DNA of 64,000 bases from an uncultured Bdellovibrio sp. (lineage in GTDB: Bacteria > Bdellovibrionota > Bdellovibrionia > Bdellovibrionales > Bdellovibrionaceae), in NCBI GenBank assembly GCA_964590635.1, contig CAZPYX010000001.1:550-64549 (forward strand), given 5' to 3'. Position 1 is the first letter of the stretch. Each line of letters starts with the position of its first letter. The notes beneath the pieces were generated by a model. The model made no database searches. It was given only the letters and a program-made list of their open reading frames with translations, and had not been told where the DNA came from. The position numbers were made by a program, and so were the translations under genes. Positions 2,077 to 23,397 of the stretch are shown here, in pieces.

Positions 2077-3348
2077 ATGATGACAAGCTTTTTAAGAGTC
2101 TTTTGGCCCGAATCGGCAACCCGTATTCAAGGGGTGATTCACTTTCGTTGGATTGCCATTGTCGGTTTGATATTTGGGGCTGTTCCCTTACTTCAAGTAG
2201 GTTATTTACAAAAGACGCAGATGCCTTTTTTGATGGCGGTGATTGCTTTGCTTGCGGTCTTTAATGGTTTGACTCAAGGGATTTGGAGCAAACCGTCAGC
2301 ATCGCAAGAGTCACGAATTTTATTTGTGCAATTATCTGTCGATCTTTTAGCTGCGACTGGGTTGTTATTTGTCAGTGGCTCAGCCAACAATCCTTTTGTC
2401 TTCGTGTTGTGCATTCATGCGTTCCTAGGGGGAATGCTTTTGCGCGGCTATCGCAGTTTGATCTTTGGTTTCTTGGTGCTCTTGTTATTATCGATTCTGC
2501 AGTCAGAGACATTTCAAGACGCCAAGATGACCGTGAATGTTGATACCAGAGAATTGTATTTCCAATTCTTAGCTCAATGGACTGTGATCATCGTTGCATG
2601 GATCGTGGCCTATCTTTTTGCAAACCTTTTGGAAAAACAAGAAAAGCGCATACGTTCTTTGCAAGAACGTCAGCTGAAGGCGGATCGCCTGAAATCCCTG
2701 GGAGCATTGACGGCGGGTTTTTCCCATCAAATGGCCACGCCTTTGAATGCCTTGAAGCTTCGTATGGATCGCGCCGCTCGTAAGTCCGCGCAACAACCGG
2801 AAATTCAAAATGAATTGTCACAGGCTCAAGAATCTTTAAGTGAGTGCATTTCGGTTTTTCATCATATGGCTGGGGTTTTTTCCAATTCAACAGGCGGAGA
2901 CCTTCAGAAGATCAAAGTGAAGTCTTTGGTGTCGGATATTCTTAAAGCCTGGAAACAAGACAATCCTCAAGTGGCAGTGGAAACTCACTTTCAAGAGGAA
3001 GAAGTTTTTTGCCAGATTCAAGCCTTGGCATTTTCACAAACTCTTTTTGATCTTTTAGACAATGCAGCTGAGGCTTCAAATTTTAAAGAAGCTATTTCTT
3101 TGCGACTTTTCACCGAAGGACAAACTTTATCATTGGAAGTGATTGACGCGGGAAAAGGCCTTTCACGAGAGATCATCTCAAGATTAGGCGAACCCTTTGC
3201 AACAGATAAAGAACATGGCAATGGTCTGGGCATTTACACGGCACAGATGTCGGCGCAAGCAATGGGCGGAGAATTTTCTTTGTTTAATAATAAGTCAGGC
3301 AAAGGTGCGACAGCTCGCTTGTCGATTCCTCAGGAAGGTTTGACATGA
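2077..3348 (+). CDS. regB: RegB/PrrB-family sensor histidine kinase
   Basis: About six TM helices, SGSANNPF (GGxxNPF-like), H-box AGFSHQMATP, Cys in SECISVF, N box LLDNAAEA, DAGKG, GNGLG. Confidence 0.8.
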   Translation: MMTSFLRVFWPESATRIQGVIHFRWIAIVGLIFGAVPLLQVGYLQKTQMPFLMAVIALLAVFNGLTQGIWSKPSASQESRILFVQLSVDLLAATGLLFVSGSANNPFVFVLCIHAFLGGMLLRGYRSLIFGFLVLLLLSILQSETFQDAKMTVNVDTRELYFQFLAQWTVIIVAWIVAYLFANLLEKQEKRIRSLQERQLKADRLKSLGALTAGFSHQMATPLNALKLRMDRAARKSAQQPEIQNELSQAQESLSECISVFHHMAGVFSNSTGGDLQKIKVKSLVSDILKAWKQDNPQVAVETHFQEEEVFCQIQALAFSQTLFDLLDNAAEASNFKEAISLRLFTEGQTLSLEVIDAGKGLSREIISRLGEPFATDKEHGNGLGIYTAQMSAQAMGGEFSLFNNKSGKGATARLSIPQEGLT

Positions 3349-3869
3349 AAATTGCGGTGAAAAAACTTTTGCTTGTCGAGGATGACAAACGTCTCCGCTC
3401 GGTTCTTCAGGAAGAACTCACCGAACGTGGTTTTGAAGTTCAAGCTTTTGCAGAATTGCCGTCTTTAAATTCTATCCAAGCTCCTGATGGGGCCCTTCTT
3501 GATTTGCGAGTTGGGCAAGAAAACGGTTTGGATCTAATTGATGGTCTTAGAAAGAAATTTCCAGGCATTCGCATTGTTGTGATGAGTGGTTTTGGCAGTG
3601 TGGCCTCCGCCGTGAAGGCTATGCAATTAGGGGCAGAGAATTTTTTAGCGAAGCCAGTGACGCCAGATATGATTGCAAAAGCTTTTTCGAGTGAGAAAGT
3701 TGCCGAGTTATCCGAAGAAGAATCGGAAATTTCCTTGGCTCGTATGGAGAGGGAATATATCGATTATGTCCTGCAAAACTCAGATGGCAATATCACGCAA
3801 GCTGCCAAAAAATTAGGTCTTCATCGTCAAAGCCTGCAAAGAAAATTGCGCAAGAATATTCCAAAGTAA
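3345..3869 (+). CDS. regA: RegA/PrrA-family response regulator
   Basis: REC domain (VEDD, LLDL, LAKP) plus C-terminal EREYIDYVL..GNITQAAKKLGLHRQSLQRKL HTH; overlaps the kinase stop by 4 nt. Confidence 0.85.
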   Translation: MKIAVKKLLLVEDDKRLRSVLQEELTERGFEVQAFAELPSLNSIQAPDGALLDLRVGQENGLDLIDGLRKKFPGIRIVVMSGFGSVASAVKAMQLGAENFLAKPVTPDMIAKAFSSEKVAELSEEESEISLARMEREYIDYVLQNSDGNITQAAKKLGLHRQSLQRKLRKNIPK

Positions 3870-4015
3870 AAATAGACCAAGCAGATCAACACTGTAATGC
3901 AGCAGGTTGGGGTTGTGACTTTTTTGTCGCTTTTCTTTTAAGCCCTCTGTGGATTTTGAAAGAGTTGACAGGTTTTTCGGCAGGTCCATAATGGCGGAAT
4001 TGCGAGGGCTAAAGC

Positions 4016-5713
4016 TTGGAAGACAAAGTTGCAACTAAAAGACCACTCTCTATTCCCTATTCTGGAACCGCATTGCTGGAGATTTCTTTATTAAATAAGG
4101 GAAGCGCCTTTTCAGAAGAAGAGCGTGTTAATCTCAAACTTTTGGGATTGCTGCCGCAAACAATCGAAACGATCGAAGAACAAGAAAAGCGTGTTTACAG
4201 CCAGTATCGAGAATTTAAATCCGATATCAATAAGCATATTTACTTGCGCAGTATGCAAGACACCAATGAGACTCTGTTCTATCATCTTCTTGATAATCAC
4301 TTAAGCGAGATGCTTCCAATCATTTATACTCCAGTGGTTGGCGAGGCTTGCGAACATTTTTCTGATATTTACCGAGCGGCCCGTGGCCTTTTTATTTCGT
4401 ATCCAAACCGAGATCATATTGATCAGATGTTGGCGAACGTGACCAAACAAAATGTGAAAGTCATTGTCGTCACAGACGGTGAGCGCATCTTGGGCTTGGG
4501 GGATCAGGGTATCGGTGGTATGGGCATTCCTATTGGGAAGTTAGCGCTTTACACTGCTTGCGGAGGAGTCAGTCCAGCTTACACCTTGCCGATTGTTCTT
4601 GATGTGGGAACGAACAATCAACAGTTACTGAATGATCCTTTGTACATGGGATGGCGTCATCCCCGTATTACTGGCGAAGAATATGACAAGTTCGTCGATG
4701 CTTTCATCCAAGCGCTGAAACGTCGCTGGCCTAATGTTCTTCTTCAGTTCGAAGATTTCGCACAAAAAAATGCCGGACCATTGTTGAATCGCTACCGAGA
4801 CGAAATTTGTTGTTTTAACGATGATATTCAAGGAACGGCTTCTGTCGTGTTGGGTTCATTGATTGCAGCGAGTCGTGCGGCGGGAAGTCGTTTGCGTGAT
4901 CAGACGGTCGCATTCTTGGGCGCAGGTTCAGCGGGCTGTGGCATTGCCGAACAAATCGTCGCAGAGATGCAAGCTGAAGGACTGAGTGAATCAGAAGCTC
5001 GTGCACGAGTGTTCATGGTGGATCGATTTGGTTTGTTGACTGATAAGATGCCAAATCTTCTCGACTTCCAAGAAAAGCTTGTTCAGAAAAGCGAGACTCT
5101 TGAAAATTGGAAGATTGAAAAGGACGCGATCTCGTTACTTGAGGTCGTAAAAAATGCGAAGCCCTCTGTTTTGATTGGTGTTTCCGCACAGCCAGGTCTT
5201 TTCACGGAAGAGATCATCCGCACCATGCACCAAAATTGTAAGCGTCCCATTGTGATGCCGCTATCAAATCCGACTTCGCGAGTGGAAGCCCGCCCGGAAG
5301 ACATCATTCAATGGACCGAAGGGGCTGCGTTGGTTGCAACGGGAAGTCCATTCACTCCGGTTCAGTACAATGGTAAAAGTTATCCCGTTGCCCAGTGTAA
5401 TAATTCATATATTTTCCCTGGAGTAGGACTTGGCGTCTTAGCTTCTGGAGCACGTCGTGTGACGGAATCCATGATGATGGCAGCAAGTCGTGCCTTAGCT
5501 GAATGTTCACCGCTTGCAAAAAAAGGTGACGGAGCTTTATTGCCGGCGATTGATGATATTCAAAAAGTTTCACGCATCATTGCCTTTAAAGTCGGGAAAG
5601 CGGCGCAAGCAGCTGACGTTGCTAAAGTCACATCGGATCAAGAGCTAGAAAAGTCTATTGAAGATAATTTCTGGAAGCCTTGGTATCGCAATTATAAGCA
5701 TGTTCCAAAATAG
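4016..5713 (+). CDS. maeA: NAD-dependent malic enzyme (MaeA/SfcA type)
   Basis: [54 protein letters not shown] motifs; 565 aa; TTG start. Confidence 0.95.
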
Positions 5714-7757: not shown

Positions 7758-8369
7758 CTATTTCAGCATCCCTTTGGACTTCACATAGCCGATTTTAATC
7801 AGCATACGGACGACCTCTAGGTCAGAACTCAAGTTTAGCTCTTCTTTGACTTCCTGAATCATCAGGCGAGTACCGCAGTCCAAGGCATCCATAAGGCTGC
7901 CGGAATGGGTGGTGGCTGTCACAGTTTTCTCTGTGTAAGAGACCTGTGTTTGAGTTGGCGCCGACTGAACCACAGATTGAGTGATGGTTTGGTGGTGCTG
8001 AGGTTGGTGGTGAACTGTATTCGAGATAGGTGTCACTTGAGGTGCTGGAGCCGTTGCCGTCATAGTAGCCATTGTCGCAGTGGCAGACATAGTCGCTGGT
8101 CCTGCTGAAGTGGCTCCAACATGAATCGCAGGACGATCTAGTTCACCCATCATTCCTGCGAGGCTCTTAAGCTCATTTTTAAAGTTTCTGATGCTAGGGC
8201 GTTCCAAAACACTATCGCCATCGCGACCAGCCTTAAGGTAAAGGCTCACCAAGATATCCGGAGTCGTAGCGATCTCCTTGATAGAAGAATCCTGCGTCAT
8301 TAGCCATTGATAGGCCTTAAGCAGAATATCTTTGGTGTATGCCTGTGGAGGCAACGGGTTCATGGTCAT
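7758..8369 (-). CDS. Hypothetical protein with a low-complexity Thr/Ala/Gln linker
   Basis: 203-aa ORF with normal coding pattern; two apparently globular ends joined by a low-complexity middle. Confidence 0.75.
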   Translation of the reverse strand: MTMNPLPPQAYTKDILLKAYQWLMTQDSSIKEIATTPDILVSLYLKAGRDGDSVLERPSIRNFKNELKSLAGMMGELDRPAIHVGATSAGPATMSATATMATMTATAPAPQVTPISNTVHHQPQHHQTITQSVVQSAPTQTQVSYTEKTVTATTHSGSLMDALDCGTRLMIQEVKEELNLSSDLEVVRMLIKIGYVKSKGMLK

Positions 8370-8590: not shown

Positions 8591-8654
8591 GGAAAAGAGT
8601 GCCTGCTTCTTTCTCCGAGAAAGTAGCAGGCACCTTTTCCGAAAAGGTACCAGG
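8591..8654. repeat. Degenerate REP-like palindrome (GGTAC/GGTGC family)
   Basis: GGAAAAGAGTGCCTGCTTCTTTCTC paired with GAGAAAGTAGCAGGCACCTTTTCC, followed by a partial GAAAAGGTACCAGG; shares the GT(A/G)CCTGCT core with the copies at 32966 and 33619. Confidence 0.7.
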
Positions 8655-8677: not shown

Positions 8678-8711
8678 AAAAAAAAGCCCCGGTTTTGCCG
8701 GGGCTTTTTTT
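8678..8711. terminator. Bidirectional intrinsic terminator
   Basis: A-run, GCCCCGG-tttt-GCCGGGGC, T-run at the stop of the sigma54 regulator. Confidence 0.85.
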
Positions 8712-10236
8712 AGTTAACGTAGTCTTTTGCGACGATTCCGTATTTTTCGATCTTACGAAGAAGCGTCTTCTTCGGGATGTTGGCGTGAAGAGCCGTTTGA
8801 TTGATACGACCTCGGAATGTTTTAAGAGCTTTGATAATAAACTCTTTTTCGAAGGCTTCTTTTTGCGCATTGAAATCTAAACTTTCGTTGCCAGAATAAG
8901 GAACAATTTCTTCGCCATCAAGATCGGCAGAGTCATCGCCCATATCAGCATCTTCATCGTCACCCAAAGTGGCGTGAGCTTTGACCGCCGCTGACATTCC
9001 TGCAGAGGCAATATTCGCAGCCGTCTCCATAACAGGTGGTACATCGATCAAATTAGTTCCAGTTGCAAATAGCAAAGACTCAGGCAACGAAGCGATCGTG
9101 ATGATGTTTGTCATCTCAAGAACGAAAGCGTGTTCGATCACGTTTTCGAGCTCACGAATATTTCCCGGCCAAGCATGCTTTTTCAAAACGGACATCGCAT
9201 CTGGAGCGATTCCATTGATACGTTTGCCATGGGCAACATTGAACTTCTTGATAAAGATGTTCACCATGTGCTCCATGTCGTCTTTGCGTTCAGCCAAGGC
9301 AGGCAAGAATATAGGTACAACGTTCAAACGATAGAACAAGTCTTCACGGAATGTTCCCGCTTTGATCATGTCTTCCAGAGGTCTGTTAGTCGCGGCGATA
9401 ATACGAACATTCGCAGGGAATTCTCTGTTTGAACCTACTGGAGTGAAAAGCTTTTCTTGAAGAACGCGAAGGATTTTAACTTGCATGAGTTGAGGCATGT
9501 CGCCCACTTCATCCAAGAATAAAGTTCCGCCTTCAGCATATTGAAACTTCCCAATTTTGCGCTGATCAGCGCCTGTGAAAGAACCCTTTTCGTGACCAAA
9601 TAATTCAGATTCGAAAAGATTTTCTGGGATTGCAGAGCAGTTGATCGCAACGAATTTTTCGTCTTTGCGAGCCGAGTTAAAGTGAATTGCTTTAGCTACA
9701 AGTTCTTTACCTGTACCTGAAGAACCACGAATCAGCACTGGCGTGTCAACTTTAGCAAGACGGTGAATGATGTTAAATACCTTCTGCATTTGTGAGGTGT
9801 TGCCGATGATCTTGCGACCGGCTTCAACCATCACAGGAGCAGAGGCTGCCACATTTGAGATCAAGTTGTGAGCGTTTACAGCTTTGTCGATCAAAGCCAA
9901 CATGTCTTCGCTAGCTACGGGTTTTGCGAGATAGTTGTAGGCACCATCTTTAACAGCTTGAATAGCATCATTCAAAGTCGCATGTGCTGTCATTACGATG
10001 ACGATAATACCAGGATTGAATTCTTTGATTTGGCGAAGGGCTTCAAGACCGTTCATGCGAGGCATGTCGACGTCTAAGATCACAACGTCGTAGTTTTTGT
10101 CACCGGCTTTGATTTTCTCCATCGCATTGACACCGTCGAAAGCTTCGTCGATATCAAAACGTTGAGTGATAGCTAAGGCTGATTTTACCGAAAGTCTTAG
10201 ACCTTGATCGTCATCGACAACTAGGACCTTAAGCAT
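8710..10236 (-). CDS. NtrC-family sigma54-dependent response regulator
   Basis: REC (VVDDD, LDVDMP), Walker A GSSGTGKE, ESELFGHEKGSFTGA, FLDEV, WPGNIREL, acidic linker, Fis-type HTH. Confidence 0.95.
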   Translation of the reverse strand: MLKVLVVDDDQGLRLSVKSALAITQRFDIDEAFDGVNAMEKIKAGDKNYDVVILDVDMPRMNGLEALRQIKEFNPGIIVIVMTAHATLNDAIQAVKDGAYNYLAKPVASEDMLALIDKAVNAHNLISNVAASAPVMVEAGRKIIGNTSQMQKVFNIIHRLAKVDTPVLIRGSSGTGKELVAKAIHFNSARKDEKFVAINCSAIPENLFESELFGHEKGSFTGADQRKIGKFQYAEGGTLFLDEVGDMPQLMQVKILRVLQEKLFTPVGSNREFPANVRIIAATNRPLEDMIKAGTFREDLFYRLNVVPIFLPALAERKDDMEHMVNIFIKKFNVAHGKRINGIAPDAMSVLKKHAWPGNIRELENVIEHAFVLEMTNIITIASLPESLLFATGTNLIDVPPVMETAANIASAGMSAAVKAHATLGDDEDADMGDDSADLDGEEIVPYSGNESLDFNAQKEAFEKEFIIKALKTFRGRINQTALHANIPKKTLLRKIEKYGIVAKDYVN

Positions 10237-12109
10237 GAATACCCCCGTGCTTGATTGGCAGTTCTACCGTAAAAGTGGATCCATTTCCATAATTAGATTC
10301 TACGGAAAGATTTCCTTTGTGTAGCTCTGTAAAATATTTAGCCAAGTAGAGCCCTAGCCCCGAACCCTTGATAGGCGAACTCTTGGCATTTTTACTTCTA
10401 AAAAACTTCATAAAGATATTATTGAGCTCTTCGGCAGGGATGCCGGGCCCCTGGTCGGCGACTTGAATGACGACTTTCTCATCTTTTTCCTCGCTGCTGA
10501 CCATGATTTTCGTGTCTTCTGGAGAGTACTTAATGGCGTTCTCTACCAGATTCGAAAGAACTTGTTTCATGAGGTCAGAATCCATAGGAATTGGAAACAT
10601 TGGTTCGAGCTCTGAAACGATTTGGATGCGTTTTACTTTAGCTAAAAACTCATGCTTACGGATGACTTCTTTAAGGACGTTGTTAATGTCCTTACTTTGC
10701 AGATGAAGTTGCACACCTTCGCTCTCAATTCGACCGTAATTGAGGATGGCGCTGATGAATTTCAATAAATCATCGGCAGAGTGCTTGATCGTATCGACAG
10801 CCTCACGCTGCTGAGAGCTGACAGGGTTTGCGTCTGTCAGAATAACTTCAGTCATTCCCTGAATGCGCGCAATCGGCGTCTTCAGATCATGGGACATCAT
10901 AGAGATAAAGTTCGTCTTAAGCTCTTCAACTTGGCTCAAGAGTTTATTCTTCTGATAATATTCCCAACTACGGCGATTTTCGACAATCAAGCGGTAGGGG
11001 ATGAAGAAGTAGTAGCAGAGGAGGCCTGCCAAAAGTGGATGAGCCATTGGAATCCAGAGGCCGAAAACCCAATAGAGAGCAAAACAAACGACAGTAAATC
11101 CACCCAGGGAACCAACCAAGATCAAAAGACCTTTTGTCGGTTTCATAGTAAGGACAGTCTGAATTGTTAAGAAAGCGATAACGAAAAGCAAAATCCAATT
11201 TATATAACTAGGTAATTTTACCGGACCTGAATTGCGAATGAGGGTATCAATGATATTCGCCTGCATCTCAATGCGAGTCATAGCGGTTGGTGAACGATCT
11301 AGAGGAGTTCTAATGTACTCTTGTTCATTCAGGTTGAGATCCGTACCAATAAGAACGATTTTGTCTTTGAATCGATCTGCATTTATTTTTCCACTTAGGA
11401 CATCTTCAAATGAAGATGAGGGAAATGTATTTTGCTTATGGTAGTCGATATAAGCTTGGTCTGTATCGTAAAAGAGGAAGTGTCCACGTACATTTTCTGG
11501 AGAAATAATCTCAGGATTGAAAAGGCTAGCTAGTTGAACTTGCAACATAGGTGAGCCTTGGAATGTAAGAATCATTCTTCTTGTAACGCTATCTTTTGCA
11601 AAGTTTAGAACATCGGCTGTTTTTGGAGCCGGAACGGATTTTACTTGCTCGAGAGGGTCCGGGAGATAGAGGCTTTTCTCCTCTCCTTTAAGTACAGTCG
11701 CCTTTGATGCAACAAAAACATTTTTATTCGCTACGATGACAGCTTCCCAGCTGTTTTTACTGTCCACATTGCCGGCTGACTCATCAACTGCGAAGTCATA
11801 AACGATGGCTTTGGCGTTGGAGGCTAGGATATTTTTAAGCAGTTGCTTTTGTGCTGCCGCATCCGGAAGACCCTTAAATTTTTGAACTGTATTAGGAGTA
11901 ATATAAATGAGTTCAATTTTATCAGAACTTGGAGTAAGGAGCTTGGTTTCTACGCGAACGTCAAAAAGCCAAGATTCAATGAACTCCAAATGAAGTTGAG
12001 CGATAAGAAATGCCATCCCCACCGCGAACAGAGCTCGCAGTGCAAAAGTACGATATTGGCTTCGCTTGGAAGCTCTTAATGTCTCTTCAGGGGAGGGAGG
12101 AAGAGTCAT
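10229..12109 (-). CDS. CHASE2-domain sensor histidine kinase
   Basis: N-terminal TM; periplasmic domain with TRRMIL and FKDKIVLIG..TP..MTRIEMQANIIDTL (CHASE2-like); three TM; SHDLKTP; NLVENAIKYS; DQGPGI; GSGLGL. Confidence 0.88.
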   Translation of the reverse strand: MTLPPSPEETLRASKRSQYRTFALRALFAVGMAFLIAQLHLEFIESWLFDVRVETKLLTPSSDKIELIYITPNTVQKFKGLPDAAAQKQLLKNILASNAKAIVYDFAVDESAGNVDSKNSWEAVIVANKNVFVASKATVLKGEEKSLYLPDPLEQVKSVPAPKTADVLNFAKDSVTRRMILTFQGSPMLQVQLASLFNPEIISPENVRGHFLFYDTDQAYIDYHKQNTFPSSSFEDVLSGKINADRFKDKIVLIGTDLNLNEQEYIRTPLDRSPTAMTRIEMQANIIDTLIRNSGPVKLPSYINWILLFVIAFLTIQTVLTMKPTKGLLILVGSLGGFTVVCFALYWVFGLWIPMAHPLLAGLLCYYFFIPYRLIVENRRSWEYYQKNKLLSQVEELKTNFISMMSHDLKTPIARIQGMTEVILTDANPVSSQQREAVDTIKHSADDLLKFISAILNYGRIESEGVQLHLQSKDINNVLKEVIRKHEFLAKVKRIQIVSELEPMFPIPMDSDLMKQVLSNLVENAIKYSPEDTKIMVSSEEKDEKVVIQVADQGPGIPAEELNNIFMKFFRSKNAKSSPIKGSGLGLYLAKYFTELHKGNLSVESNYGNGSTFTVELPIKHGGIHA

Positions 12110-12136
12110 AATTTCCTTTGCGTAGTTTCTTATTTT

Positions 12137-12250
12137 CTATTTAACAGGAATACACTCATTGCCACCGCCTAAGCCAGGAGATGATCCAAAGCTAGGAGTA
12201 GTCTTAACGGGCTTTACCTTTTTAATATGTTTAGTAGTTTGAGTTGTCAT
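12137..12250 (-). CDS. Putative RiPP precursor peptide, 37 aa: MTTQTTKHIKKVKPVKTTPSFGSSPGLGGGNECIPVK
   Basis: Below the ORF-track cut-off; translated by hand. GAGGT RBS 5 nt before the ATG; ATG lies 11 nt after the radical SAM stop; TAG is 27 nt before the kinase ATG. Confidence 0.8.
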   Translation of the reverse strand: MTTQTTKHIKKVKPVKTTPSFGSSPGLGGGNECIPVK

Positions 12251-12261
12251 CGTGTACCTCA

Positions 12262-13542
12262 TTAGCAGGCTTCCCTGCATTTTTTGTAGAATAATAAAGT
12301 TGTGCCAAGCAAGTCTTGCATACGCGAGCAGAATTGTTTGTTCTTTGTATTTTTAGAGCCAGATCCTTGTTTGTGGATAAACATGCATCCTCCGCCGCAC
12401 AAGTAGCGTGCCCAGCATGTCTGGCAATTATTTTGTTCGATAAGTGAATCAGTGTACTTTTTTAAGGCCGCATTGTCCAACACGCTACCTTGTCCAACCT
12501 GTTCATTTTTTTGTCCAACGTCCCATGGGCACGTGAATAGACCATTTTTTGCATCAACAACTAAGAACGACTTTCCAGCGCCACAGAAATTCTCTGTTCT
12601 GCGTTGATCGTCTAGAGAAGAAAAAATATTATCGAAGAAGCCAATTTGTCTTAGACCGGCTTCGCCTAAATTTTCATAAGCATACTCGGCAATTTGATGC
12701 ATTTGTTGCGCAAAGATCTTGCTGCTTTTTTCGTCAGCGGCTTCAACGCCATAAGTGAATTCATATTTATCGGCCGGGAAATTGCGATAGAAGTTGTATG
12801 CTTCGATGAGGTTCATATTTTCATCATGAAAAACGCCATGCAAAGAAATCGAACCCAGTTGCTCTTTGTTTGCAAATAACATTTTTAGTCCCTCAGTGAC
12901 GATGGCAGAACTGCCCTGGCCATTCTTCAAGGGACGTACTTTGTCGTTAATATATTCCGGTCCATCAACACTTACAGTGATGTGGCATTTGATATCTTTG
13001 AGCAACTGAAGTGTTGTTTCATTGATCAAAGTTCCATTTGTGACGATCGCAAAATATGCCTTAAGGTCTTTTTCTGAGGTAAACGCCTTAACATATTGTG
13101 CAATGGCTCGAATTCCCTCTGGGTAGAGAAGGGGCTCTCCGCCAAGGAAAGTAATTTTAAAACTTTGCCCTGCAGAAAGCTGCTCTAGGAAAAATTTTAA
13201 TTGAGGCAAAGTCTTTTCAACAGAAATCTTCGTTTGTGGAGACCCATAGGTTCCGTCTCCACCGGCCGCGCAGTAAGTGCATTTCAGATTGCAAATTTGG
13301 GTGACATTGATCGTAAGGCTGCGAATACCGAATGCCAACTTTCCAGAGGAAACTTCCAAGTTGTTCTCATTGTTCCATGTAGCCAAAGATTCCTGAAGTT
13401 CTGAGTTCTTAATTTCGGAACCCAGTTCTTGCCAAAGCTCATCAGAGATCTCCGCGACTTCCAAATTTCGGGCGTGGAAAGCTATCGGAGCTTGTTGGCC
13501 CCATTTGAATGCTATGATGTCGTTTTGTCTCCGAGTTTCCAC
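12262..13542 (-). CDS. Radical SAM/SPASM peptide maturase (CteB/PapB-like)
   Basis: CNLKCTYC, FLGGEPLL, VTNGTL and a seven-Cys SPASM (CGAG..CPW..CQTC..CGGGC..C); about 70 aa of N-terminal RRE-like region. Start uncertain: the track gives 13674, but a sigma54 promoter inside that extension points to GTG 13542. Confidence 0.88.
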   Translation of the reverse strand: METRRQNDIIAFKWGQQAPIAFHARNLEVAEISDELWQELGSEIKNSELQESLATWNNENNLEVSSGKLAFGIRSLTINVTQICNLKCTYCAAGGDGTYGSPQTKISVEKTLPQLKFFLEQLSAGQSFKITFLGGEPLLYPEGIRAIAQYVKAFTSEKDLKAYFAIVTNGTLINETTLQLLKDIKCHITVSVDGPEYINDKVRPLKNGQGSSAIVTEGLKMLFANKEQLGSISLHGVFHDENMNLIEAYNFYRNFPADKYEFTYGVEAADEKSSKIFAQQMHQIAEYAYENLGEAGLRQIGFFDNIFSSLDDQRRTENFCGAGKSFLVVDAKNGLFTCPWDVGQKNEQVGQGSVLDNAALKKYTDSLIEQNNCQTCWARYLCGGGCMFIHKQGSGSKNTKNKQFCSRMQDLLGTTLLFYKKCREAC

Positions 13543-13553
13543 ACCCAAAGTGC

Positions 13554-13570
13554 TAGCAATAGATGTACCA
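13554..13570 (-). promoter_or_regulatory. Sigma54 (-24/-12) promoter for the radical SAM operon
   Basis: Minus strand TGGTAC-ATCTA-TTGCTA; GG-N10-GC spacing with one mismatch to TGGCAC-N5-TTGCW. Confidence 0.7.
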
Positions 13571-13703
13571 CTTTGAGAAATACTTGGCTGGCCGAATAAG
13601 ATGAGTAAAATCAATAATTTAGAATATATTTGGAGGTGGTATTTTGAGCCATATTTTGATGGAAGTGGGGTCAAAATGAAACTATTGCAGGTATGACCAT
13701 CAG

Positions 13704-13738: not shown

Positions 13739-15418
13739 ATGCTTAATCACCATGTGACGACAGCCCACAACTATAAGGAATTTCCGCAATCAGTTGTCGT
13801 AAAAAATACTGTGGACGAGAAAGTTGGAGGAAGAGATGGTCGAATTCGACGATTTGTTCTTAGCATGGACGGTGAATCACTTGATTCCGATTTAGAACGT
13901 TTTCAGAAGCAATTAGGAATTGAGACCAGACCCTTACAAGAATATCAGAACTACTTTCTGTTATCTGGATCGAAGCAAATCTATTTGAGATTGTATGATC
14001 CTAAATCAATTTTGACTTTGCTGCCTGGTCAGATCGAGAAGAAGGGATCAGATCTAGCAGGGAAGATTCTATTTGTTGGAAGTCACGACCAGCATTCCTT
14101 TTATTTGCACAAGTCAATTTCTGGAAGATTTGTTTTAAATGACTCTCAATCAATGGAGTATATGATTTCAGATGCATCCTATCTTGTTAATGCTTTGGAA
14201 AATTTGCGAAGTTTAAATTATATCAAGATGCCGCCGCAATCAGTGAACGTGCTTTGGATCACGGTTTTTGTTGCAATTAATGTCTTTCTTCTATTTATTT
14301 TAAGTCCGTTTTCTTTCATTGTAGCCTCATTTGTTTATCCAATTTTATTTTTCGCTTTGAATTGTTCGATATTTGAATTTGTACAATTTAATTTAGATAT
14401 AAGTAGAGTTTTGTTCTGCGGTCTTTTAATTCAATATATAGGCGTTCCAATTTTACTAATGCGCTACTTGAGACGAGTTGACTCTGAAAAACTTCAGGCA
14501 GAGAAGGAAAGAGCTGTTGATAAGGTCAAATCACGTTTTATTGTTAAGGTCGCAAAGGCTGATCTGAGTTTGCAAATGGCAGCAAGAGTATCGCATGATA
14601 TTCGCAGCCCATTGATGGCTTTGCAGGTCGCAAATTCATTCATTAAGGGCAAGATTTCAGAAGATTTAGAATCTCTCATTCATGAATCTACTCTGAGACT
14701 TAAATTTATTGCCGAAGATATTCTCGACGGCTATCGAGAAGGAAAAGTGGGAGTACGTCCAACTGAGCGAACGGCAATAAAAGAAGTTCTTGAAGAGCTA
14801 TTGAAGTCTTACCGAACCTTGAATCCCGATGTAAAATTTGAATTAGAAGTTGCAGATAATATTGTGACGTTCATTCCCTCATATAGTTTACAAAGATGTC
14901 TTTCAAATTTATTCAATAATTCGATCGAAGCTTTTGAAAACTCATGTGAAACGGTACTTATTTCTGCCAGCCATATCGATGCGAAGAAGGGCAGCTGTTT
15001 CATTATTAATTTGCCTGAAGCTCTTTCTCGAGTTCCCTTGGCAATCACGTCCAACGTTTTAGTTGTAGAGTCTGGGCAAGAGATTTACACCGCGTTGAGA
15101 AATACCGGAAATGTATCTCTGCATATGCGGCAGGAGAGAACTGTTGAGGCAGCACATAATGCCTTGCGCGAGTTTGGTGGGAAATGGACTGTGTTCATTG
15201 ATCTCTCTTTGTCAGATGAAGAATCTGGCTTTGACTTAATAGAAGTATTGGGTGAGAGCTTTTCAGGAAAGGTAATTCTTTGTTCAGTTTTTGCAGACAA
15301 CATGGAAGTGCAAGAAATCGCAAATCGTTACGATGCACTTCTTTTGAATAAAGAACTGTTGCCTCGTTTAGAGTTGATTGTGAGTAACCAAAATTCTATC
15401 CGAGGCAATTCAACTTAG
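13739..15418 (+). CDS. Degenerate hybrid histidine kinase (partial CHASE2-like region, TMs, HisKA, truncated HATPase, atypical REC)
   Basis: DGRIRRFVL, three TM, VSHDIRSP, NLFNNSIEA then almost directly KKGSCFIINLP with no DxGxG; C-terminal VLVVES..FIDLSL..LLNK. AT-rich. Confidence 0.7.
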   Translation: MLNHHVTTAHNYKEFPQSVVVKNTVDEKVGGRDGRIRRFVLSMDGESLDSDLERFQKQLGIETRPLQEYQNYFLLSGSKQIYLRLYDPKSILTLLPGQIEKKGSDLAGKILFVGSHDQHSFYLHKSISGRFVLNDSQSMEYMISDASYLVNALENLRSLNYIKMPPQSVNVLWITVFVAINVFLLFILSPFSFIVASFVYPILFFALNCSIFEFVQFNLDISRVLFCGLLIQYIGVPILLMRYLRRVDSEKLQAEKERAVDKVKSRFIVKVAKADLSLQMAARVSHDIRSPLMALQVANSFIKGKISEDLESLIHESTLRLKFIAEDILDGYREGKVGVRPTERTAIKEVLEELLKSYRTLNPDVKFELEVADNIVTFIPSYSLQRCLSNLFNNSIEAFENSCETVLISASHIDAKKGSCFIINLPEALSRVPLAITSNVLVVESGQEIYTALRNTGNVSLHMRQERTVEAAHNALREFGGKWTVFIDLSLSDEESGFDLIEVLGESFSGKVILCSVFADNMEVQEIANRYDALLLNKELLPRLELIVSNQNSIRGNST

Positions 15419-17367
15419 TGAACTTTAAACTCACCGGTTTCGTCAGTAAACAAGCGAAGATCAAAAGAGCGGTCGGTGATGACGCGTTGGATGTACATGA
15501 GGGACTTATACAGCTCTTCTTGGTCGAAATTGCCGAAGCGATAAGAGATTGTATCTACGCCTTTTGCAGAGAAAGTCATTTCGTAAGCAATCAGAGATTG
15601 AACTTGGTTGGCGGGGATTAGTGATAACAGGAAGCCACCACCATATTGCTGCCAAAGAGGGAAGTCTTTAAGTTCCTTGAATGACTTGTAACGAGCTTCT
15701 GAGGTTTCCGCAGGATTGAAGATCACTGCCAAAGACCTTGCGACATATGAGATGTCCAAATCATAACGATCTAAACCAAATGATCTGTTGTCATCGCCGT
15801 AAGGACCTTGCTCGCGGGGTGGCATTTTTGGGGTTCCATGGGTTTTGATGAAGTTATAAAGACGTACTTTCGCCAATGGATAGTCCAATGTGGGAATCGC
15901 ACGCAAAGCATTTGGATGGAAGAAGATCTCGTTACTAAAGTAGCCATTGACGTGACTGCCATTAGAGAAATCCCATTTTTTCCAATCAATGCGTGCATAT
16001 TCTTCGGCTGGGATCACGGACTTCACGTGTTCTTGGATGTCTTTGTAGTCACCCTTTGAAACGTTCTTCATCTTCATTTCACGGCCCAGTGTTAATGCGA
16101 CAAAGTCGCGAATGATCCAACTGTCGTCAGAAGAGAAAAGCATATTCGTCGTGATGCGATTTTCATCTCCGAACAATCCAAAGATAGCTTTCACTTTCTT
16201 GTTTGTTTGGAATGTATCCATGATGTATTTTTGCTCTTTGTCGTCGCGGTCCACGTGTACCACTTTATTTTGCGCATAAGTAGAGCCCGCTTCAAAACGC
16301 AGAATATTCAAACCAAATTTGAATGAAGAATCCGTGCTTAAAGATTCGTTGGAACCTTTGAAAATGCGATCAATTCGACGTTTGAAAGGCTCGAGTTCAT
16401 GATCTTCTTTTACGATATCTTCAACAACTGAAAGATCTGTTAACAGATCTTCTTTAACAACAGCACTTTTTTCGATCGGGTTGATAAACGCAAGATCTTT
16501 AAAGCGTGTTTTCTTGTGAATAAGATCGTTGTAGGCCTGTGCCGCTTGGGAATTATTGAGGTCAAAGACATAGTCTAGCATGAAGAGATTGTTCGCACTT
16601 CTGCCGGTACCAAGGATGAGTGGATCTAGATCGATCCAACTTTTGATTCTATTATCTAAGTATTTGAAACCAACAATTTTGAAGTTTCCAAAGTTGACGT
16701 TGCCGTCAGCTCCCATGCCTTTTCCGCGAATTGCGATGAGCTTCACACGCAGCTTGTTGTTGGACATTCTAAATGTATGAATTAAGAACTCACCAGAGAC
16801 ATACGCATGAGTAGAGGCTCCAACATTGCCGATGGCCGTTAAAGGTGCATTCGCACCGAGCGAAACCACAAAGGAAAGTTTGCCAGTCATGGCGACGAAA
16901 TCCCCTGGATTCAAATTGCGAATGGCTTGCTCTGCAGAAAGCGGTAAGTTCTTAGGTCCATAGGGTAAAGCAGTTAAAGAGTCGACTTGCTTCTTAAATT
17001 GACGGGCAAAAATGATCTCTGAGTTATTATTGATTCCGAATCCTAGAGGCAAGTCATTGCCATCAATAAAATCCCCTGGATTTGCATCAAGGTCTAATGA
17101 GTATCTGTCGAGACGGGTGTAATAACCATCGACATAGGAAGGCTCAGATTGGATTTTGTATTTAATCGCAGCAGAGAGTCCATCGAAAACGTTGGCATCG
17201 ACGATGTTAACTGTAGCTCCAACTTTTTGTTTTGCGATGATGTTCTTAACTCGCGTGGCAACCTTAGAGGGCTCGAGGAAATCAAGACCTCCAGCATGAG
17301 CTGGTAACGCCGAAAATAACAGACCCGATGATAGGGTCACAGATAGTACATGTTTGGCGATAGTCAT
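15415..17367 (-). CDS. Secreted hypothetical protein, 650 aa
   Basis: Signal peptide ending PAHA, GGAGG RBS, no family recognised. Confidence 0.85.
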   Translation of the reverse strand: MTIAKHVLSVTLSSGLLFSALPAHAGGLDFLEPSKVATRVKNIIAKQKVGATVNIVDANVFDGLSAAIKYKIQSEPSYVDGYYTRLDRYSLDLDANPGDFIDGNDLPLGFGINNNSEIIFARQFKKQVDSLTALPYGPKNLPLSAEQAIRNLNPGDFVAMTGKLSFVVSLGANAPLTAIGNVGASTHAYVSGEFLIHTFRMSNNKLRVKLIAIRGKGMGADGNVNFGNFKIVGFKYLDNRIKSWIDLDPLILGTGRSANNLFMLDYVFDLNNSQAAQAYNDLIHKKTRFKDLAFINPIEKSAVVKEDLLTDLSVVEDIVKEDHELEPFKRRIDRIFKGSNESLSTDSSFKFGLNILRFEAGSTYAQNKVVHVDRDDKEQKYIMDTFQTNKKVKAIFGLFGDENRITTNMLFSSDDSWIIRDFVALTLGREMKMKNVSKGDYKDIQEHVKSVIPAEEYARIDWKKWDFSNGSHVNGYFSNEIFFHPNALRAIPTLDYPLAKVRLYNFIKTHGTPKMPPREQGPYGDDNRSFGLDRYDLDISYVARSLAVIFNPAETSEARYKSFKELKDFPLWQQYGGGFLLSLIPANQVQSLIAYEMTFSAKGVDTISYRFGNFDQEELYKSLMYIQRVITDRSFDLRLFTDETGEFKVH

Positions 17368-17410: not shown

Positions 17411-17426
17411 TGCAAGTGAAGTGCCT
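17411..17426 (-). promoter_or_regulatory. Sigma54 promoter for the 650-aa protein gene
   Basis: Minus strand AGGCAC-TTCAC-TTGCA, GG-N10-GC, 43 nt upstream of the ATG. Confidence 0.65.
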
Positions 17427-17915: not shown

Positions 17916-18896
17916 ATGTCTCTCAGAATAAAATTTTGGGGCGTGAGGGGATCACTTCCTTCATCACCTACACCGACGGAATGGACATATCATATTGAGG
18001 GAGTTATTCGTAACTTCTTCTCAATGGGCTATCGTGATCTTTCTCAGGTTTCAAATTATATCAAAAGTGTCCCCGAGCCCGTTATAGGTGGCTATGGCAC
18101 GGCAACGACTTGCGTAGAACTTTCCAGTGCAAAGTCACAAATCATTATTGATGGTGGCAGTGGCATTCGCACTTTGAGCGAGTCGATCATGAGAGGCACC
18201 TCTGGCAGAGCAAAAGGTCCTTTCCATATTTTTATGACTCATTTTCATTGGGATCATATAATTGGATTGCCGTTTTTTACTCCGCATTTTATTCCAGGAA
18301 GTGAAATTCATTATTATGCGGTTCAGAGTGATCTTGAGCAGTTAATCCGCGGAATTTTCAAGAAGCCTTATTTTCCAGTTCCCTTTGAAGCTTTGAAAGC
18401 AAAAATCCACTTCCATATTTTGGAGCCTCGCAAGCCCATTCAAGTCGATGATTTTAAAGTGACTCCTTATCAGCTCGATCATCCAGATCCTTGTTGGGGT
18501 TACAAGGTAGAGTCCGGTGGAAAAACTTACGCGCATTGTGTGGATACAGAAGGAACCCGCGTGACTCCTGAAGAGTTGGGGCTGGATCTTCCCTTGTATC
18601 AGAATGTCGATGTGATGTATTTCGATGCTCAGTACACTTTGCCAGAGTTGGCGGAAAAAGCGAATTGGGGACATAGCGCTGCTCAAGTAGGGCTTGAAAT
18701 TGCGTTACGTGAAGGGATTCACAGAGTGCTATTCGCACATCATGATCCGGGCGCTCGTGCTGAACACGTGATGGAGCTAAAACGTCAAACAGGTGAGTAC
18801 TATCAGTCTTTGATGTCGAAGGTTTCCGAAAATAATGAGCAGATCAAAGAAATCGTTTGGGACTTCGCGCACGAAGGTCTTGAGATTAAACTTTAA
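17916..18896 (+). CDS. Metallo-beta-lactamase-fold hydrolase
   Basis: WGVRGSLP, IIDGGSG, THFHWDH, LDHP, FDAQY, WGHS, HHDP motifs. Confidence 0.9.
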   Translation: MSLRIKFWGVRGSLPSSPTPTEWTYHIEGVIRNFFSMGYRDLSQVSNYIKSVPEPVIGGYGTATTCVELSSAKSQIIIDGGSGIRTLSESIMRGTSGRAKGPFHIFMTHFHWDHIIGLPFFTPHFIPGSEIHYYAVQSDLEQLIRGIFKKPYFPVPFEALKAKIHFHILEPRKPIQVDDFKVTPYQLDHPDPCWGYKVESGGKTYAHCVDTEGTRVTPEELGLDLPLYQNVDVMYFDAQYTLPELAEKANWGHSAAQVGLEIALREGIHRVLFAHHDPGARAEHVMELKRQTGEYYQSLMSKVSENNEQIKEIVWDFAHEGLEIKL

Positions 18897-22643: not shown

Positions 22644-22742
22644 ACACGTAGCGTAGTACGAAATTGTGTTCGAAGCAAAGCTCGGATGTAATTTGTCTGG
22701 TCTACACTCCAGCTTTGCTGGAGGAGATTGAAAGGATCGTTT

Positions 22743-23387
22743 GTGGCTAAGAAGAAATCTTCTGCTAAGCAAACTAAGCAAGTCAAAAAAGCTTCTCCAA
22801 AGAAGGCCGGGAAAAAGGCCGCTCCGAAAAAGAAACCAGTTGTAAAAAAAGCTGCACCTAAGGCTGCGACTAAGAAAAAAACTGCTCCAGTTAAGAAAAC
22901 GGCGAAAAAAGTAGCTCCTAAAAAAGCGGCGACGAAAAAATCACCGGTGAAGAAGGCAGCAGCGAAGAAGTCAGCTCCAAAAAAGGCAACGAAGTCAGCG
23001 GTTAAGCCCGTTGCTAAGCCTAGCTCTGCAAAACCTGCGAACCAACACTTGTTAAGAGCAGTTGCTCCAGTAAAACAACTGGATTTGAGCAATTTCGTGA
23101 CTCCGTTGGATGATCGTTTGATTGTTCAATTGTCGGGTGCGGAAAAAATGACAGCAGGTGGTTTGTACATTCCTGATACTGTTTCTGATGTTTCAGGTAA
23201 TTTGCATGGCACAGTGGTTGCCGCAGGCCGAGGTCATGTCAGCAAAAAAGGCCATCTTCGTCCCATGGACGTCAAGGTCGGAGACAAGATTGTCTTTGCT
23301 GAGTACGCAGGATCAAAAATCAAAATTCAAAATGAAGACCTTGTCATCATTCGCGAAGGCGACGTGATGGGCGTGGTTGCAAAATAA
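22743..23387 (+). CDS. groES: GroES co-chaperonin with an N-terminal Lys/Ala/Pro-rich histone H1-like extension
   Basis: C-terminal PLDDRLIV..TAGGLYIPD..VKVGDKIVFAEYAG..IIREGDVMG; about 100 aa of KKAAPK-type repeats; AAAGGA RBS before GTG 22743. Confidence 0.88.
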   Translation: MAKKKSSAKQTKQVKKASPKKAGKKAAPKKKPVVKKAAPKAATKKKTAPVKKTAKKVAPKKAATKKSPVKKAAAKKSAPKKATKSAVKPVAKPSSAKPANQHLLRAVAPVKQLDLSNFVTPLDDRLIVQLSGAEKMTAGGLYIPDTVSDVSGNLHGTVVAAGRGHVSKKGHLRPMDVKVGDKIVFAEYAGSKIKIQNEDLVIIREGDVMGVVAK

Positions 23388-23397
23388 GGGATAAAGA

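Follow-up and report, generated by a model that had tools for sequence, protein, structure and literature searches.

Four co-directional genes on the minus strand of a 64,000-nucleotide stretch of DNA from an uncultured Bdellovibrio sp. (contig CAZPYX010000001.1; hereafter the window, to whose first letter positions refer unless another locus is named) encode, within positions 13570–8679, a radical S-adenosylmethionine (rSAM)/SPASM maturase, a short precursor peptide with a single Cys, a CHASE2 sensor histidine kinase and an NtrC-type activator of σ54-dependent transcription (Table 1). We suggest that the operon represents a new one-Cys family of peptides that are made on ribosomes and modified after translation (RiPPs), wired to a CHASE2/σ54 two-component system, in what is plausibly a self-amplifying autoinducer loop; we give this reading a probability of about 0.4.

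The open reading frames (ORFs) and the gaps between them are exactly as a preliminary description, made from the DNA letters alone, had claimed. The stop codon of the maturase gene (TAA, 12264–12262) is followed after 11 nt by the ATG of the peptide gene (12250), the peptide stop codon (12139–12137) is separated by 27 nt from the kinase ATG (12109), and the regulator ATG (10236) gives rise to an 8-nt overlap with the kinase gene, which ends at 10229. Chance is a far from adequate explanation for this spacing and for the ORFs themselves, given that the amino acid sequence of the small ORF is conserved, with synonymous codon variation, in all 81 loci compared below. Alignments of homologues place the maturase start at GTG 13542, and a 470-residue ORF starting from a TTG codon at 13674 is an artefact. 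Position 13570, where the preliminary description let the cluster begin, is not the start of the enzyme gene but the first base of a σ54-type −24/−12 promoter element. The single terminator proposed to close the operon was recovered as a strong hairpin directly at the regulator stop codon, with perfect 14-nt arms (A7GCCCCGG/CCGGGGCT7), a 5-nt loop and a free energy of −21.9 kcal/mol (z = −3.7); it was not among the results of a simple terminator scan of the window. Lying between a conserved −24/−12 promoter and this terminator, the four genes appear to form one transcription unit. Just downstream, two more near-perfect hairpins, with 22-nt arms at 8594–8638 and 11-nt arms at 8629–8651, might act as additional terminators or represent a REP-like element or a small RNA. 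No Rfam match at gathering scores was found anywhere in the window.

Table 1. Elements of the operon in the window and variant loci discussed in the text; positions of variant loci are those of the respective locus.
Element or locus	Position	Strand	Sequence or size	Remarks
Conserved 20-bp upstream block	13667..13686	−	AATAGTTTCATTTTGACCCC (AATAGTTTCMTTTTGMCCCC)	~100 nt ahead of the −24 element; unique in the window
A/T-rich IHF-like site	13603..13620	−	AAATTATTGATTTTACTC (reverse complement contains AATCAATAATTTA)	between upstream block and promoter; assigned by eye
σ54-type −24/−12 promoter	13555..13570	−	TGGTACATCTATTGCT (TGGTACATCTATTGC from 13570)	one mismatch to TGGCAC-N5-TTGC
Radical SAM/SPASM maturase	12262..13542	−	426 aa	GTG start
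Precursor peptide	12137..12250	−	37 aa, MTTQTTKHIKKVKPVKTTPSFGSSPGLGGGNECIPVK	leader motif KHIKKVKP, Gly-rich spacer, sole Cys within C-I-P
CHASE2 sensor histidine kinase	10229..12109	−	626 aa	
NtrC-type response regulator/σ54 activator	8710..10236	−	508 aa	
Intrinsic terminator	8679..8711	−	GCCCCGG-CAAAA-CCGGGGC + U run	closes the operon
Locus L058	6001–11910		family-type peptide	CHASE2 kinase, then 842-aa ORF, cation-transporting P-type ATPase-like by sequence motifs
Locus L082	3250–7721		peptide MKLLVRTIRRPQVVSDPGSGCRPLGET	CHASE2 kinase, then, on the opposite strand, a hybrid REC-HisKA-HATPase gene; neighbours differ
Locus L083	5001–6503		peptide MKHIKKIKTTKKVTKSATDPGCNPIND	no adjacent CHASE2 kinase or regulator
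Locus L084			peptide ...KNIKLIPPKK...GPVQCLPLG...	CHASE2 kinase, σ54 regulator
Locus L085			peptide ...KNSCVPIR	CHASE2 kinase, σ54 regulator
Locus L086			peptide ...VKHIKIAKP...RRGCNPSSQ	CHASE2 kinase, σ54 regulator, promoter at −27

The peptide gene had been described as absent from an automated ORF list yet equipped with a good ribosome-binding site. Indeed, a GAGG sequence lies 7 nt before its ATG, and the gene calls on an identical public contig omit the peptide. For comparison, we fetched 80 genome loci encoding relatives of the maturase, labelled Bdellovibrio, Pseudobdellovibrio or unclassified Bdellovibrionales except for two contigs with unrelated labels that are probably mis-binned; with the window, this gave 81 loci. 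In all 81, a small ORF lies between the enzyme and kinase genes, and a Shine-Dalgarno (SD)-like sequence, weak in one case, precedes its start. When the 81 peptides were compared after choice of start codons, each contained exactly one Cys and a Pro two positions after it (C-x-P), and no other residue was invariant. The most conserved position upstream of the Cys is a Gly at Cys−3 (59/81), while the positions of the leader motif H-I-K-K-[VIL]-K-P are occupied accordingly in 78, 75, 73, 77, 76, 66 and 73 of the 81 peptides, respectively. Total length ranges from 27 to 76 residues, with 17–31 residues from the leader motif to the Cys and 3–13 residues after it. Codons at conserved residues vary (His, 42 CAC and 36 CAT; Cys, 53 TGC and 28 TGT; Pro, all four codons), which argues for selection on the protein. 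The small ORF is thus a genuine conserved coding gene under protein-level selection, and the features of the peptide, in which leader and one-Cys core are conserved while the spacer between them varies, fit a RiPP precursor.

The proposal had been made to depend on conservation of the small ORF, and an adjacent precursor gene was found in 81/81 loci and in five further, distant loci. It had also been expected that gene order and a C-terminal NEC core would be conserved; the former is, whereas of the core only the Cys and the Pro at +2 are invariant, the Bdellovibrio-clade cores reading GEGC or GNEC. In one locus (L047, 3473–3707), the precursor gene is present in two tandem copies, MNTKTQHIKKVKPVKAIATSTTGLSCIPIG and MKTTTTKHVKKVKPSKKSSSSTTGLACIPSGLPNSSSN, between those for enzyme and kinase. 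Only 48 matching peptide entries, whose names say no more than "hypothetical protein", were retrieved when 5.8 billion proteins were searched with a profile. The peptide matched no Pfam or NCBIfam family at E values up to 10 (42 members in the case of NCBIfam), and a peptide profile gave no match among PDB chains, CteA, the substrate of the clostridial maturase CteB, not being retrieved.

We regard it as very improbable that the small ORF is not a substrate, i.e. that it is an upstream ORF tuning translation of the kinase or a chance ORF and that the rSAM enzyme acts on another protein. Such a view could draw on the fact that gene callers mostly omit the ORF, but it is difficult to reconcile with amino acid motifs maintained through synonymous changes in 81/81 loci, nearly all copies bearing an SD-like sequence, or with a leader motif in common with the CteA leader that binds the RiPP recognition element (RRE) of CteB. 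The tandem duplication in L047 and the same type of peptide next to a distant enzyme that lacks a kinase gene (see below) also speak against it. A different idea, that the peptide might be a lipoprotein, was prompted by GLAC, GLSC and GIAC cores in one clade and by lspA lying two genes downstream. A lipobox was ruled out, as there is no hydrophobic signal sequence, Leu occupies position −2 rather than −3 and the Bdellovibrio clade has GEGC/GNEC; adjacency to lspA is confined to 23/80 loci and reflects ileS-lspA synteny.

The maturase matched the Pfam models Radical_SAM and Fer4_12, and the Pfam SPASM model itself gave no match. As the preliminary description had recognized, it is a seven-Cys SPASM enzyme: the Cys residues of a CNLKCTYC motif (C84/C88/C91) and seven SPASM Cys residues (C320/C338/C373/C376/C382/C386/C405) are invariant in 43 homologues. 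Among solved structures, CteB is the closest relative both by sequence (5WGG/5WHY, E = 3.6e-41, 144 bits, compared to E = 7.6e-13 and 51 bits for the anaerobic sulfatase-maturating enzyme [anSME] 4K37) and by fold; an AlphaFold2 model (predicted local distance difference test score 85, predicted template-modelling score 0.84) matched CteB with a TM-score of 0.75 over the full length, with anSME as the second-best structural match (TM-score 0.62–0.64). The best NCBIfam scores were obtained with the PapB (174.4 bits), nif11 rSAM (171 bits), QhpD (134 bits), SCIFF (forty-five residues with six Cys) maturase (125.9 bits) and anSME (84.5 bits) models, all below the cut-offs (340 for PapB, NF047865; 425 for SCIFF, TIGR03974; 349 for anSME, TIGR03942), and membership in the SCIFF maturase, PapB and anSME families was rejected on these scores. 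The assignment to a CteB/PapB type consequently stands as far as a CteB-like sequence and fold are concerned, but not as membership in the SCIFF or PapB families.

To our knowledge, anSMEs have no N-terminal domain of the kind that seems to be present here. In the AlphaFold2 model, the first ~60 residues of the maturase adopt four strands and two helices, and the hidden Markov model (HMM) alignment extends into the N-terminal domain of CteB, where an RRE binds the CteA leader as a strand (PMC8326336). A Pfam search of the maturase, without use of an RRE-specific tool, gave no PqqD/RRE HMM match. The modelled N-terminus is best described as RRE-like, i.e. as a putative domain of the leader-binding type.

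A profile search of 1.84 billion representatives delineated the maturases as a discrete family, with full-length matches running from 668 to ~340 bits and a few intermediates above a plateau at ~190 bits; the plateau consists of generic SPASM maturases, for the majority of which the alignment does not begin before about residue 70. The clade comprises ~60 clusters at 50% identity. Database names for its members are all generic, one source annotating a homologue as anSME. Two outgroup enzymes are encoded in unrelated genomic contexts without a CHASE2 kinase, one with a multi-Cys precursor gene followed by an ABC transporter gene, the other with no precursor found. In L084, an FNR-type reductase gene (3839–4903, minus strand; FAD_binding_6, NAD_binding_1 and 2Fe-2S domains) is divergent from the rSAM gene; its product is a possible electron donor for the enzyme.

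By analogy with the nearest relatives, and given the seven-Cys SPASM pattern, a thioether formed from the peptide Cys is the most likely product. The enzyme might instead oxidise the Cys in C-x-P, as in formylglycine formation by anSME, or epimerise or otherwise modify a neighbouring residue, in which case no thioether ring would arise. This alternative, which we consider unlikely, finds its best arguments in the peptides: C-x-P is invariant in 81/81, Arg or Lys follows at +4 in 32% (in the Bdellovibrio clade, as CIPVR or CIPVK), and there is no conserved acceptor residue. The rank of anSME as second-best structural match and the anSME label that one source gives to a homologue point in the same direction. 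However, the anSME model scored only 84.5 bits (cut-off 349) compared to 126–174 bits for thioether-forming maturases, and the sequence score against anSME (51 bits) is far from that against CteB (144 bits). Moreover, the maturase has a CteB-like N-terminal domain, while anSME chains are 60–80 residues shorter and align over ~70 fewer columns, and conservation extends to only seven SPASM Cys residues, the same number as in CteB, in which the auxiliary cluster offers a free site able to take a substrate Cys (PMC8326336). Thioether formation is thus more likely than Cys oxidation.

The kinase contains CHASE2 (5.5e-26; 92 bits, cut-off 26.3), HisKA (1.6e-16) and HATPase_c (2.6e-28) domains according to Pfam. 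Its hydropathy profile, with a first transmembrane helix at residues ~21–44, an extracytoplasmic CHASE2 domain at ~45–298 and three transmembrane helices at ~299–372 ahead of HisKA and HATPase_c, corresponds to the canonical CHASE2 topology of one transmembrane helix, extracytoplasmic CHASE2 domain, three transmembrane helices and kinase core (PMC5192318), and the protein qualifies as a CHASE2 sensor kinase in this respect. No cytoplasmic PAS or GAF sensor domain was detected by Pfam between the membrane region and HisKA. Across the loci, CHASE2 is the most divergent part, with a median identity of 39% compared to 73% for the kinase core. The regulator matched Sigma54_activat (1e-71), Response_reg (4.7e-28) and HTH_8 (2.8e-6), as well as an AAA lid model, and its translation contains a GAFTGA-type loop reading GSFTGA; against the NtrC model TIGR01818 it scored 418 bits, which is below the cut-off. 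Median identities of 86% for the AAA+ domain and 94% for the helix-turn-helix (HTH) domain were found across the loci, the latter implying a conserved DNA target. With a receiver (REC) domain, an AAA+ σ54 domain and a Fis-type HTH domain in the regulator, and a −24/−12 promoter in front of the genes, the sequence describes what appears to be an NtrC-type σ54 two-component system.

In 80% of 79 loci, the rSAM gene is preceded by a −24/−12 element (at least 9 of 11 consensus positions), compared to 0% for reverse complements, 0.8% for shuffled sequences and 1.3% for coding windows. In the Bdellovibrio clade (L001–L024 and the window), its first base is located 28–32 nt before the start codon, from which a nearly leaderless transcript with a 5′ leader of only 1–6 nt is predicted; in other clades the 5′ untranslated region (UTR) measures 30–95 nt. 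These longer UTRs often carry an inverted repeat of the type GTGACA...TGTCAC (e.g. L025, L026, L033, L035, L039 and L040). Other σ54-like sites in the window are not enriched (65 in total, compared to 57 ± 7 expected by chance), and the element at 13570 is the sole σ54-like site in the window with conservation support. The only perfect match to TGGCAC-N5-TTGC in the window lies at 23207–23221, inside the GroES coding region.

Further upstream, the conserved block listed in Table 1 recurs in 25/63 loci, with up to three mismatches and with its distance from the promoter motif fixed at −102 to −115, compared to 1/63 reverse complements and 0/63 coding sequences. Among 26 close matches in ~1 Mb of searched DNA, 23 lie upstream of an rSAM promoter, and two further matches occupy the same place in L020 and in the window. 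The block is a candidate enhancer, i.e. a putative activator-binding site; the idea that the block is in general an inverted repeat (TTTTGNCCC...GGGNCAAAA) was discarded, this being limited to a sub-clade (11/63 loci). The IHF-like site between block and promoter, a putative match to WATCAA-N4-TTR made only by eye, has a similar counterpart, TAAGTAnTTGAnnTTACT, at the same place in Bdellovibrio-clade loci. Together, block, IHF-like site and −24/−12 element seem to be arranged as in a promoter that depends on an enhancer. As its driver, the operon's own activator would be the obvious candidate, and, with the promoter motif in 80% of loci but only ~1% of controls, feedback through this activator is likely.

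The order rSAM gene–peptide gene–kinase gene is kept in 80/80 loci, and the regulator gene comes next after the kinase gene in 72 of the 73 loci in which the contig is long enough. The trio of enzyme, peptide and CHASE2 kinase persists in two loci without an adjacent regulator (L082 and L058) and also in the distant relatives L082, L084, L085 and L086. L083 encodes a distant enzyme (220 bits to the family profile) with a peptide of the KHIKK...C-x-P type; its next genes encode a DUF2490 protein and a 445-residue protein, and S49 peptidase (SppA-like) and HIT genes lie upstream. From these variants, we conclude that the enzyme–peptide pair is a unit of its own and that, within Bdellovibrionales, its bond with the CHASE2 kinase is closer than that between kinase and regulator.

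Based on these observations, the following mechanism can be envisaged. The maturase would dock on the (K)HIKK[VIL]KP leader via its N-terminal domain and modify the peptide at or through the sole Cys in C-x-P, most likely forming a thioether ring as in its nearest relatives. The peptide product, or a fragment of it, would reach the periplasm by a route not encoded in the operon and act on the periplasmic CHASE2 domain, upon which the kinase would phosphorylate the activator. The latter would bind upstream of the operon's σ54 promoter and raise transcription of all four genes, resulting in a self-amplifying peptide-signalling loop with further σ54 targets as its output. An autoinducing loop would be expected to be wired in this way, with a conserved σ54 promoter on an operon that encodes its own σ54 activator. 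We infer, as did the preliminary description, that the kinase has the modified peptide as its ligand.

In favour of this assignment are the wiring of the operon, the persistence of the trio, the rapid divergence of CHASE2 and a covariation signal. The similarity of the peptide core (Cys−8 to the end, invariant positions removed) correlates best with that of CHASE2 (pairwise Spearman coefficient 0.45–0.49), and a partial correlation of 0.25–0.27, reached by 0/499 and 0/299 permutations, persists when kinase core, regulator and enzyme are controlled for. Partial correlations of the peptide core with the regulator linker, the transmembrane region of the kinase and the N-terminus of the enzyme are ~0. 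Co-diversification of peptide core and CHASE2 is weak and suggestive only.

Several points weigh against a self-amplifying peptide loop. When CHASE2 is cut to 65 columns, the partial correlation drops to 0.19 ± 0.055, compared to 0.15 for the most variable regulator columns, and the Mantel-type permutation tests are not tree-aware and overstate significance for related sequences. The whole neighbourhood is syntenic, including the MBL-fold hydrolase gene upstream and a gene for a 203-residue protein downstream, and part of the linkage may hence be inheritance. L083 combines enzyme and peptide without an adjacent kinase gene. No thioether acceptor residue is conserved among the peptides, which leaves Cys-to-residue crosslinking only an analogy. 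An operon transcribed from a σ54 promoter alone and encoding its own activator needs basal expression, for which no source was identified, and which activator serves the promoter is again a matter that we infer. Finally, the peptide is hydrophilic and strongly basic and has no signal peptide, and no ABC exporter or peptidase domain was found by Pfam in 20 large ORFs (807–36718, outside the cluster; some of them without any match), in agreement with the earlier statement that no exporter or protease gene is adjacent. Pyrroloquinoline quinone, likewise the product of an rSAM/SPASM pathway, functions in the periplasm although no exporter encoded in its cluster is known; with this precedent, the missing exporter is not decisive.

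The two-component system might control the peptide rather than sense it. CHASE2 would then read another periplasmic or environmental cue, e.g. from prey or the envelope, the activator would turn on the operon, the modified peptide would be an output with a target of its own, e.g. an effector, a metal or redox ligand or an antimicrobial, and autoregulation by kinase and regulator would be a by-product of gene order. We consider this possible, if short of probable. The operon and promoter evidence serves it equally well, no exporter or protease marks the peptide as a dedicated secreted signal, the enzyme–peptide pair of L083 points to a function of the pair in its own right, and a second kinase-like gene beside the operon in 11 loci suggests other inputs. 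However, retention of the trio where the regulator is not adjacent (L082 and L058) would be unexpected if the kinase were a mere upstream regulator. In addition, covariation of the peptide core is stronger with CHASE2 than with the maturase, and group-wide conservation of the peptide looks more like physiology or signalling than like a strain-specific weapon.

Alternatively, the modified peptide might stay in the cytoplasm in a cofactor-like or regulatory role, e.g. reporting Fe-S, SAM or redox state to kinase or regulator from within the cell, with CHASE2 sensing something unrelated. rSAM/SPASM enzymes are oxygen- and reductant-dependent, and product formation could in itself report the state of the cell. 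The absence of an export signal and an exporter, the hydrophilic, basic character of the peptide and the FNR-type reductase gene divergent from the rSAM gene in L084 would suit such a role. On the other hand, there is no PAS or GAF domain between the membrane region of the kinase and HisKA, and the peptide co-diversifies with the periplasmic domain, not with transmembrane or cytoplasmic parts; we judge a cytoplasmic role to be quite unlikely. Our preference, held tentatively, is that the rSAM-modified one-Cys peptide is an autocrine or quorum signal that is read by CHASE2 and feeds back on its own operon via the σ54 activator.

The surroundings of the operon belong to the chromosomal core: a plasmid origin was ruled out, with no megablast match in PLSDB and with lspA and genes for PBP1A, SodB, malic enzyme and UvrD nearby. 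Upstream (17916–18896, plus strand), a gene encodes an apparently cytoplasmic MBL-fold hydrolase with an HFHWDH motif and weak similarity to RNase Z, PhnP and cyclic-nucleotide phosphodiesterases. It adjoins the operon in 62/80 loci, usually in divergent orientation, and in ~25–30 loci apparently lies right beside the promoter region, whereas it is separated from the operon by two inserted genes in the window. A role as a PqqB-like processing enzyme was considered, but no link can be claimed, since the wider neighbourhood is equally syntenic. The first of the inserted genes (13739–15418, plus strand) is divergent from the operon and encodes a 559-residue kinase-like protein with a soluble N-terminal part, transmembrane helices, HisKA and a receiver-like C-terminus, whose ATP-binding domain looks truncated, with an N box, no HATPase_c match and no G boxes by eye. 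A second kinase gene lies beside the operon in 11/80 loci, on either strand. The other inserted gene (15415–17367, minus strand) encodes a 650-residue protein with a signal-peptide-like N-terminus that belongs to no family; a σ54-like element, AGGCACTTCACTTGC, lies at 17412–17426 (minus strand), 45 nt before its ATG. Homologues are found upstream of the operon in nine loci, directly before the rSAM promoter in L027, and the protein could be a regulon member.

Beyond the operon terminator, at 7758–8369 (minus strand), lies the gene for the 203-residue protein, which belongs to no Pfam or NCBIfam family; its N- and C-terminal parts are conserved, and its middle is T/A/Q-rich and of low complexity. 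In most loci, including the distant L084 (31% identity), this gene comes after that of the regulator, and in L084 and L086 it precedes ileS. About 5 kb downstream of the operon (2077–3869, plus strand), a PilS-like kinase with six transmembrane helices is encoded together with a short REC-Fis-HTH regulator without an AAA+ domain. At 22728–24819 (plus strand), a GroES (Cpn10) gene is followed, at the place expected for GroEL, by a 473-residue ORF without a Pfam match.

Among known systems, the biosynthetic half of the operon is closest to the SCIFF/thermocellin system (CteA/CteB; ranthipeptides of Clostridia), CteB being the best solved relative by sequence and fold. Both enzymes combine an N-terminal domain, only putatively of the leader-binding type in the present maturase, with an rSAM barrel and a seven-Cys SPASM region, in both systems the precursor gene adjoins the enzyme gene, and both are conserved across a whole taxon rather than strain-specific. 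The resemblance of the KHIKKV segment to SCIFF leaders, noted at the outset, holds in that CteA (chain 5WGG_B, MKHIKILNGSTLKDSLKKGGC) begins with MKHIKIL, but it is limited to 4–5 residues. A link of SCIFF peptides to quorum sensing has been reported (Chen et al. 2020, cited in PMC8326336). The present peptides differ in having one Cys rather than six in ~45 residues, in their host, a Gram-negative aerobe, and in co-transcription with a CHASE2 kinase and a σ54 activator. Membership in the SCIFF precursor family (TIGR03973) was rejected, with one Cys in 81/81 peptides and no match to the model in 42 members at E values up to 10; of the features that mark SCIFF, only the start of the leader is present.

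PapB, nif11-type and QhpD maturases are the highest-scoring curated families, far below their cut-offs; unlike the substrates of PapB (freyrasin) and NxxcB-type enzymes, the peptides described here have neither CxxxD/E repeats nor a fixed Asn, Asp or Thr acceptor. In NxxcA, one thioether joins the Cys and the residue at −3 (PMC8326336); at this position, 59/81 of the present peptides have a Gly. With anSME, the maturase has the SPASM fold in common, and the peptide core C-x-P, often followed by x-R/K, recalls the C-x-P-x-R sulfatase motif. The sequence match is weak, however, the maturase has an extra N-terminal domain, and its putative substrate is a peptide of 27–76 residues rather than a sulfatase; anSME membership (TIGR03942) was rejected at 84.5 bits compared to 349, R/K at +4 occurring in only 32% of peptides.

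The staphylococcal agrBDCA and lantibiotic nisin (NisK/NisR) systems are autoinducing circuits that unite a precursor, the enzyme modifying it, a membrane-bound histidine kinase and a response regulator. What they have in common with the present operon is the logic, including a promoter that depends on the type of regulator encoded in the same unit. The parts differ: an rSAM enzyme takes the place of AgrB or LanB/C, CHASE2 that of the AgrC and NisK sensors and an NtrC/σ54 regulator that of LytTR or OmpR-type regulators, genes for an exporter or a protease are lacking, the host belongs to the Gram-negative bacteria, and peptide sensing is here a proposal. The term agr-like circuit, used in the preliminary description, is hence apt for the logic only, as judged by domain content no component is homologous to AgrB, AgrD, AgrC or AgrA.

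On the sensory side, the BiofilmReg operon of Burkholderia encodes a CHASE2 kinase of the same topology along with a LysM/FecR protein, a PAS domain and an OmpR-type regulator (PMC5192318), without a peptide or an rSAM enzyme; CHASE2 ligands were stated to be unknown in that 2016 paper (PMC5192318). A pairing of an rSAM/SPASM enzyme with a σ54 regulator is also implied by the geopeptide rSAM maturase and "GPMC system transcriptional regulator" models (TIGR04280 and NF038230), known to us from the model names alone. They gave weak matches here (93.6 and 139 bits; cut-offs 400 and 1200), and we found no literature on a geopeptide/GPMC system. The preliminary description knew of no account of such an arrangement; similarly, the literature searched yielded no paper on the cluster, on an rSAM peptide cluster of Bdellovibrio or defining a CHASE2 ligand. 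The operon represents a new RiPP family in a new regulatory pairing.

For RiPP mining, the operon defines an unnamed precursor family, characterized by a (K)HIKK[VIL]KP leader and a single Cys in C-x-P and mostly missed by annotation pipelines, whose minimal one-Cys core offers a simple model for CteB-like chemistry without a canonical acceptor residue. CHASE2 domains are widespread, and the peptide is a concrete candidate for a CHASE2 ligand, encoded 27 nt from the gene of its presumed receptor. We know of no peptide signalling system on record for Bdellovibrio. If our proposal is correct, the modified peptide would be the first defined ligand of a CHASE2 domain and part of the first peptide autoinducer circuit in Bdellovibrio-like bacteria, and the signal might serve to time predator density, prey entry or the switch from attack to growth. 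Being present in every related locus examined, with what appears to be a self-activating σ54 promoter, the module is a good candidate for life-cycle control.

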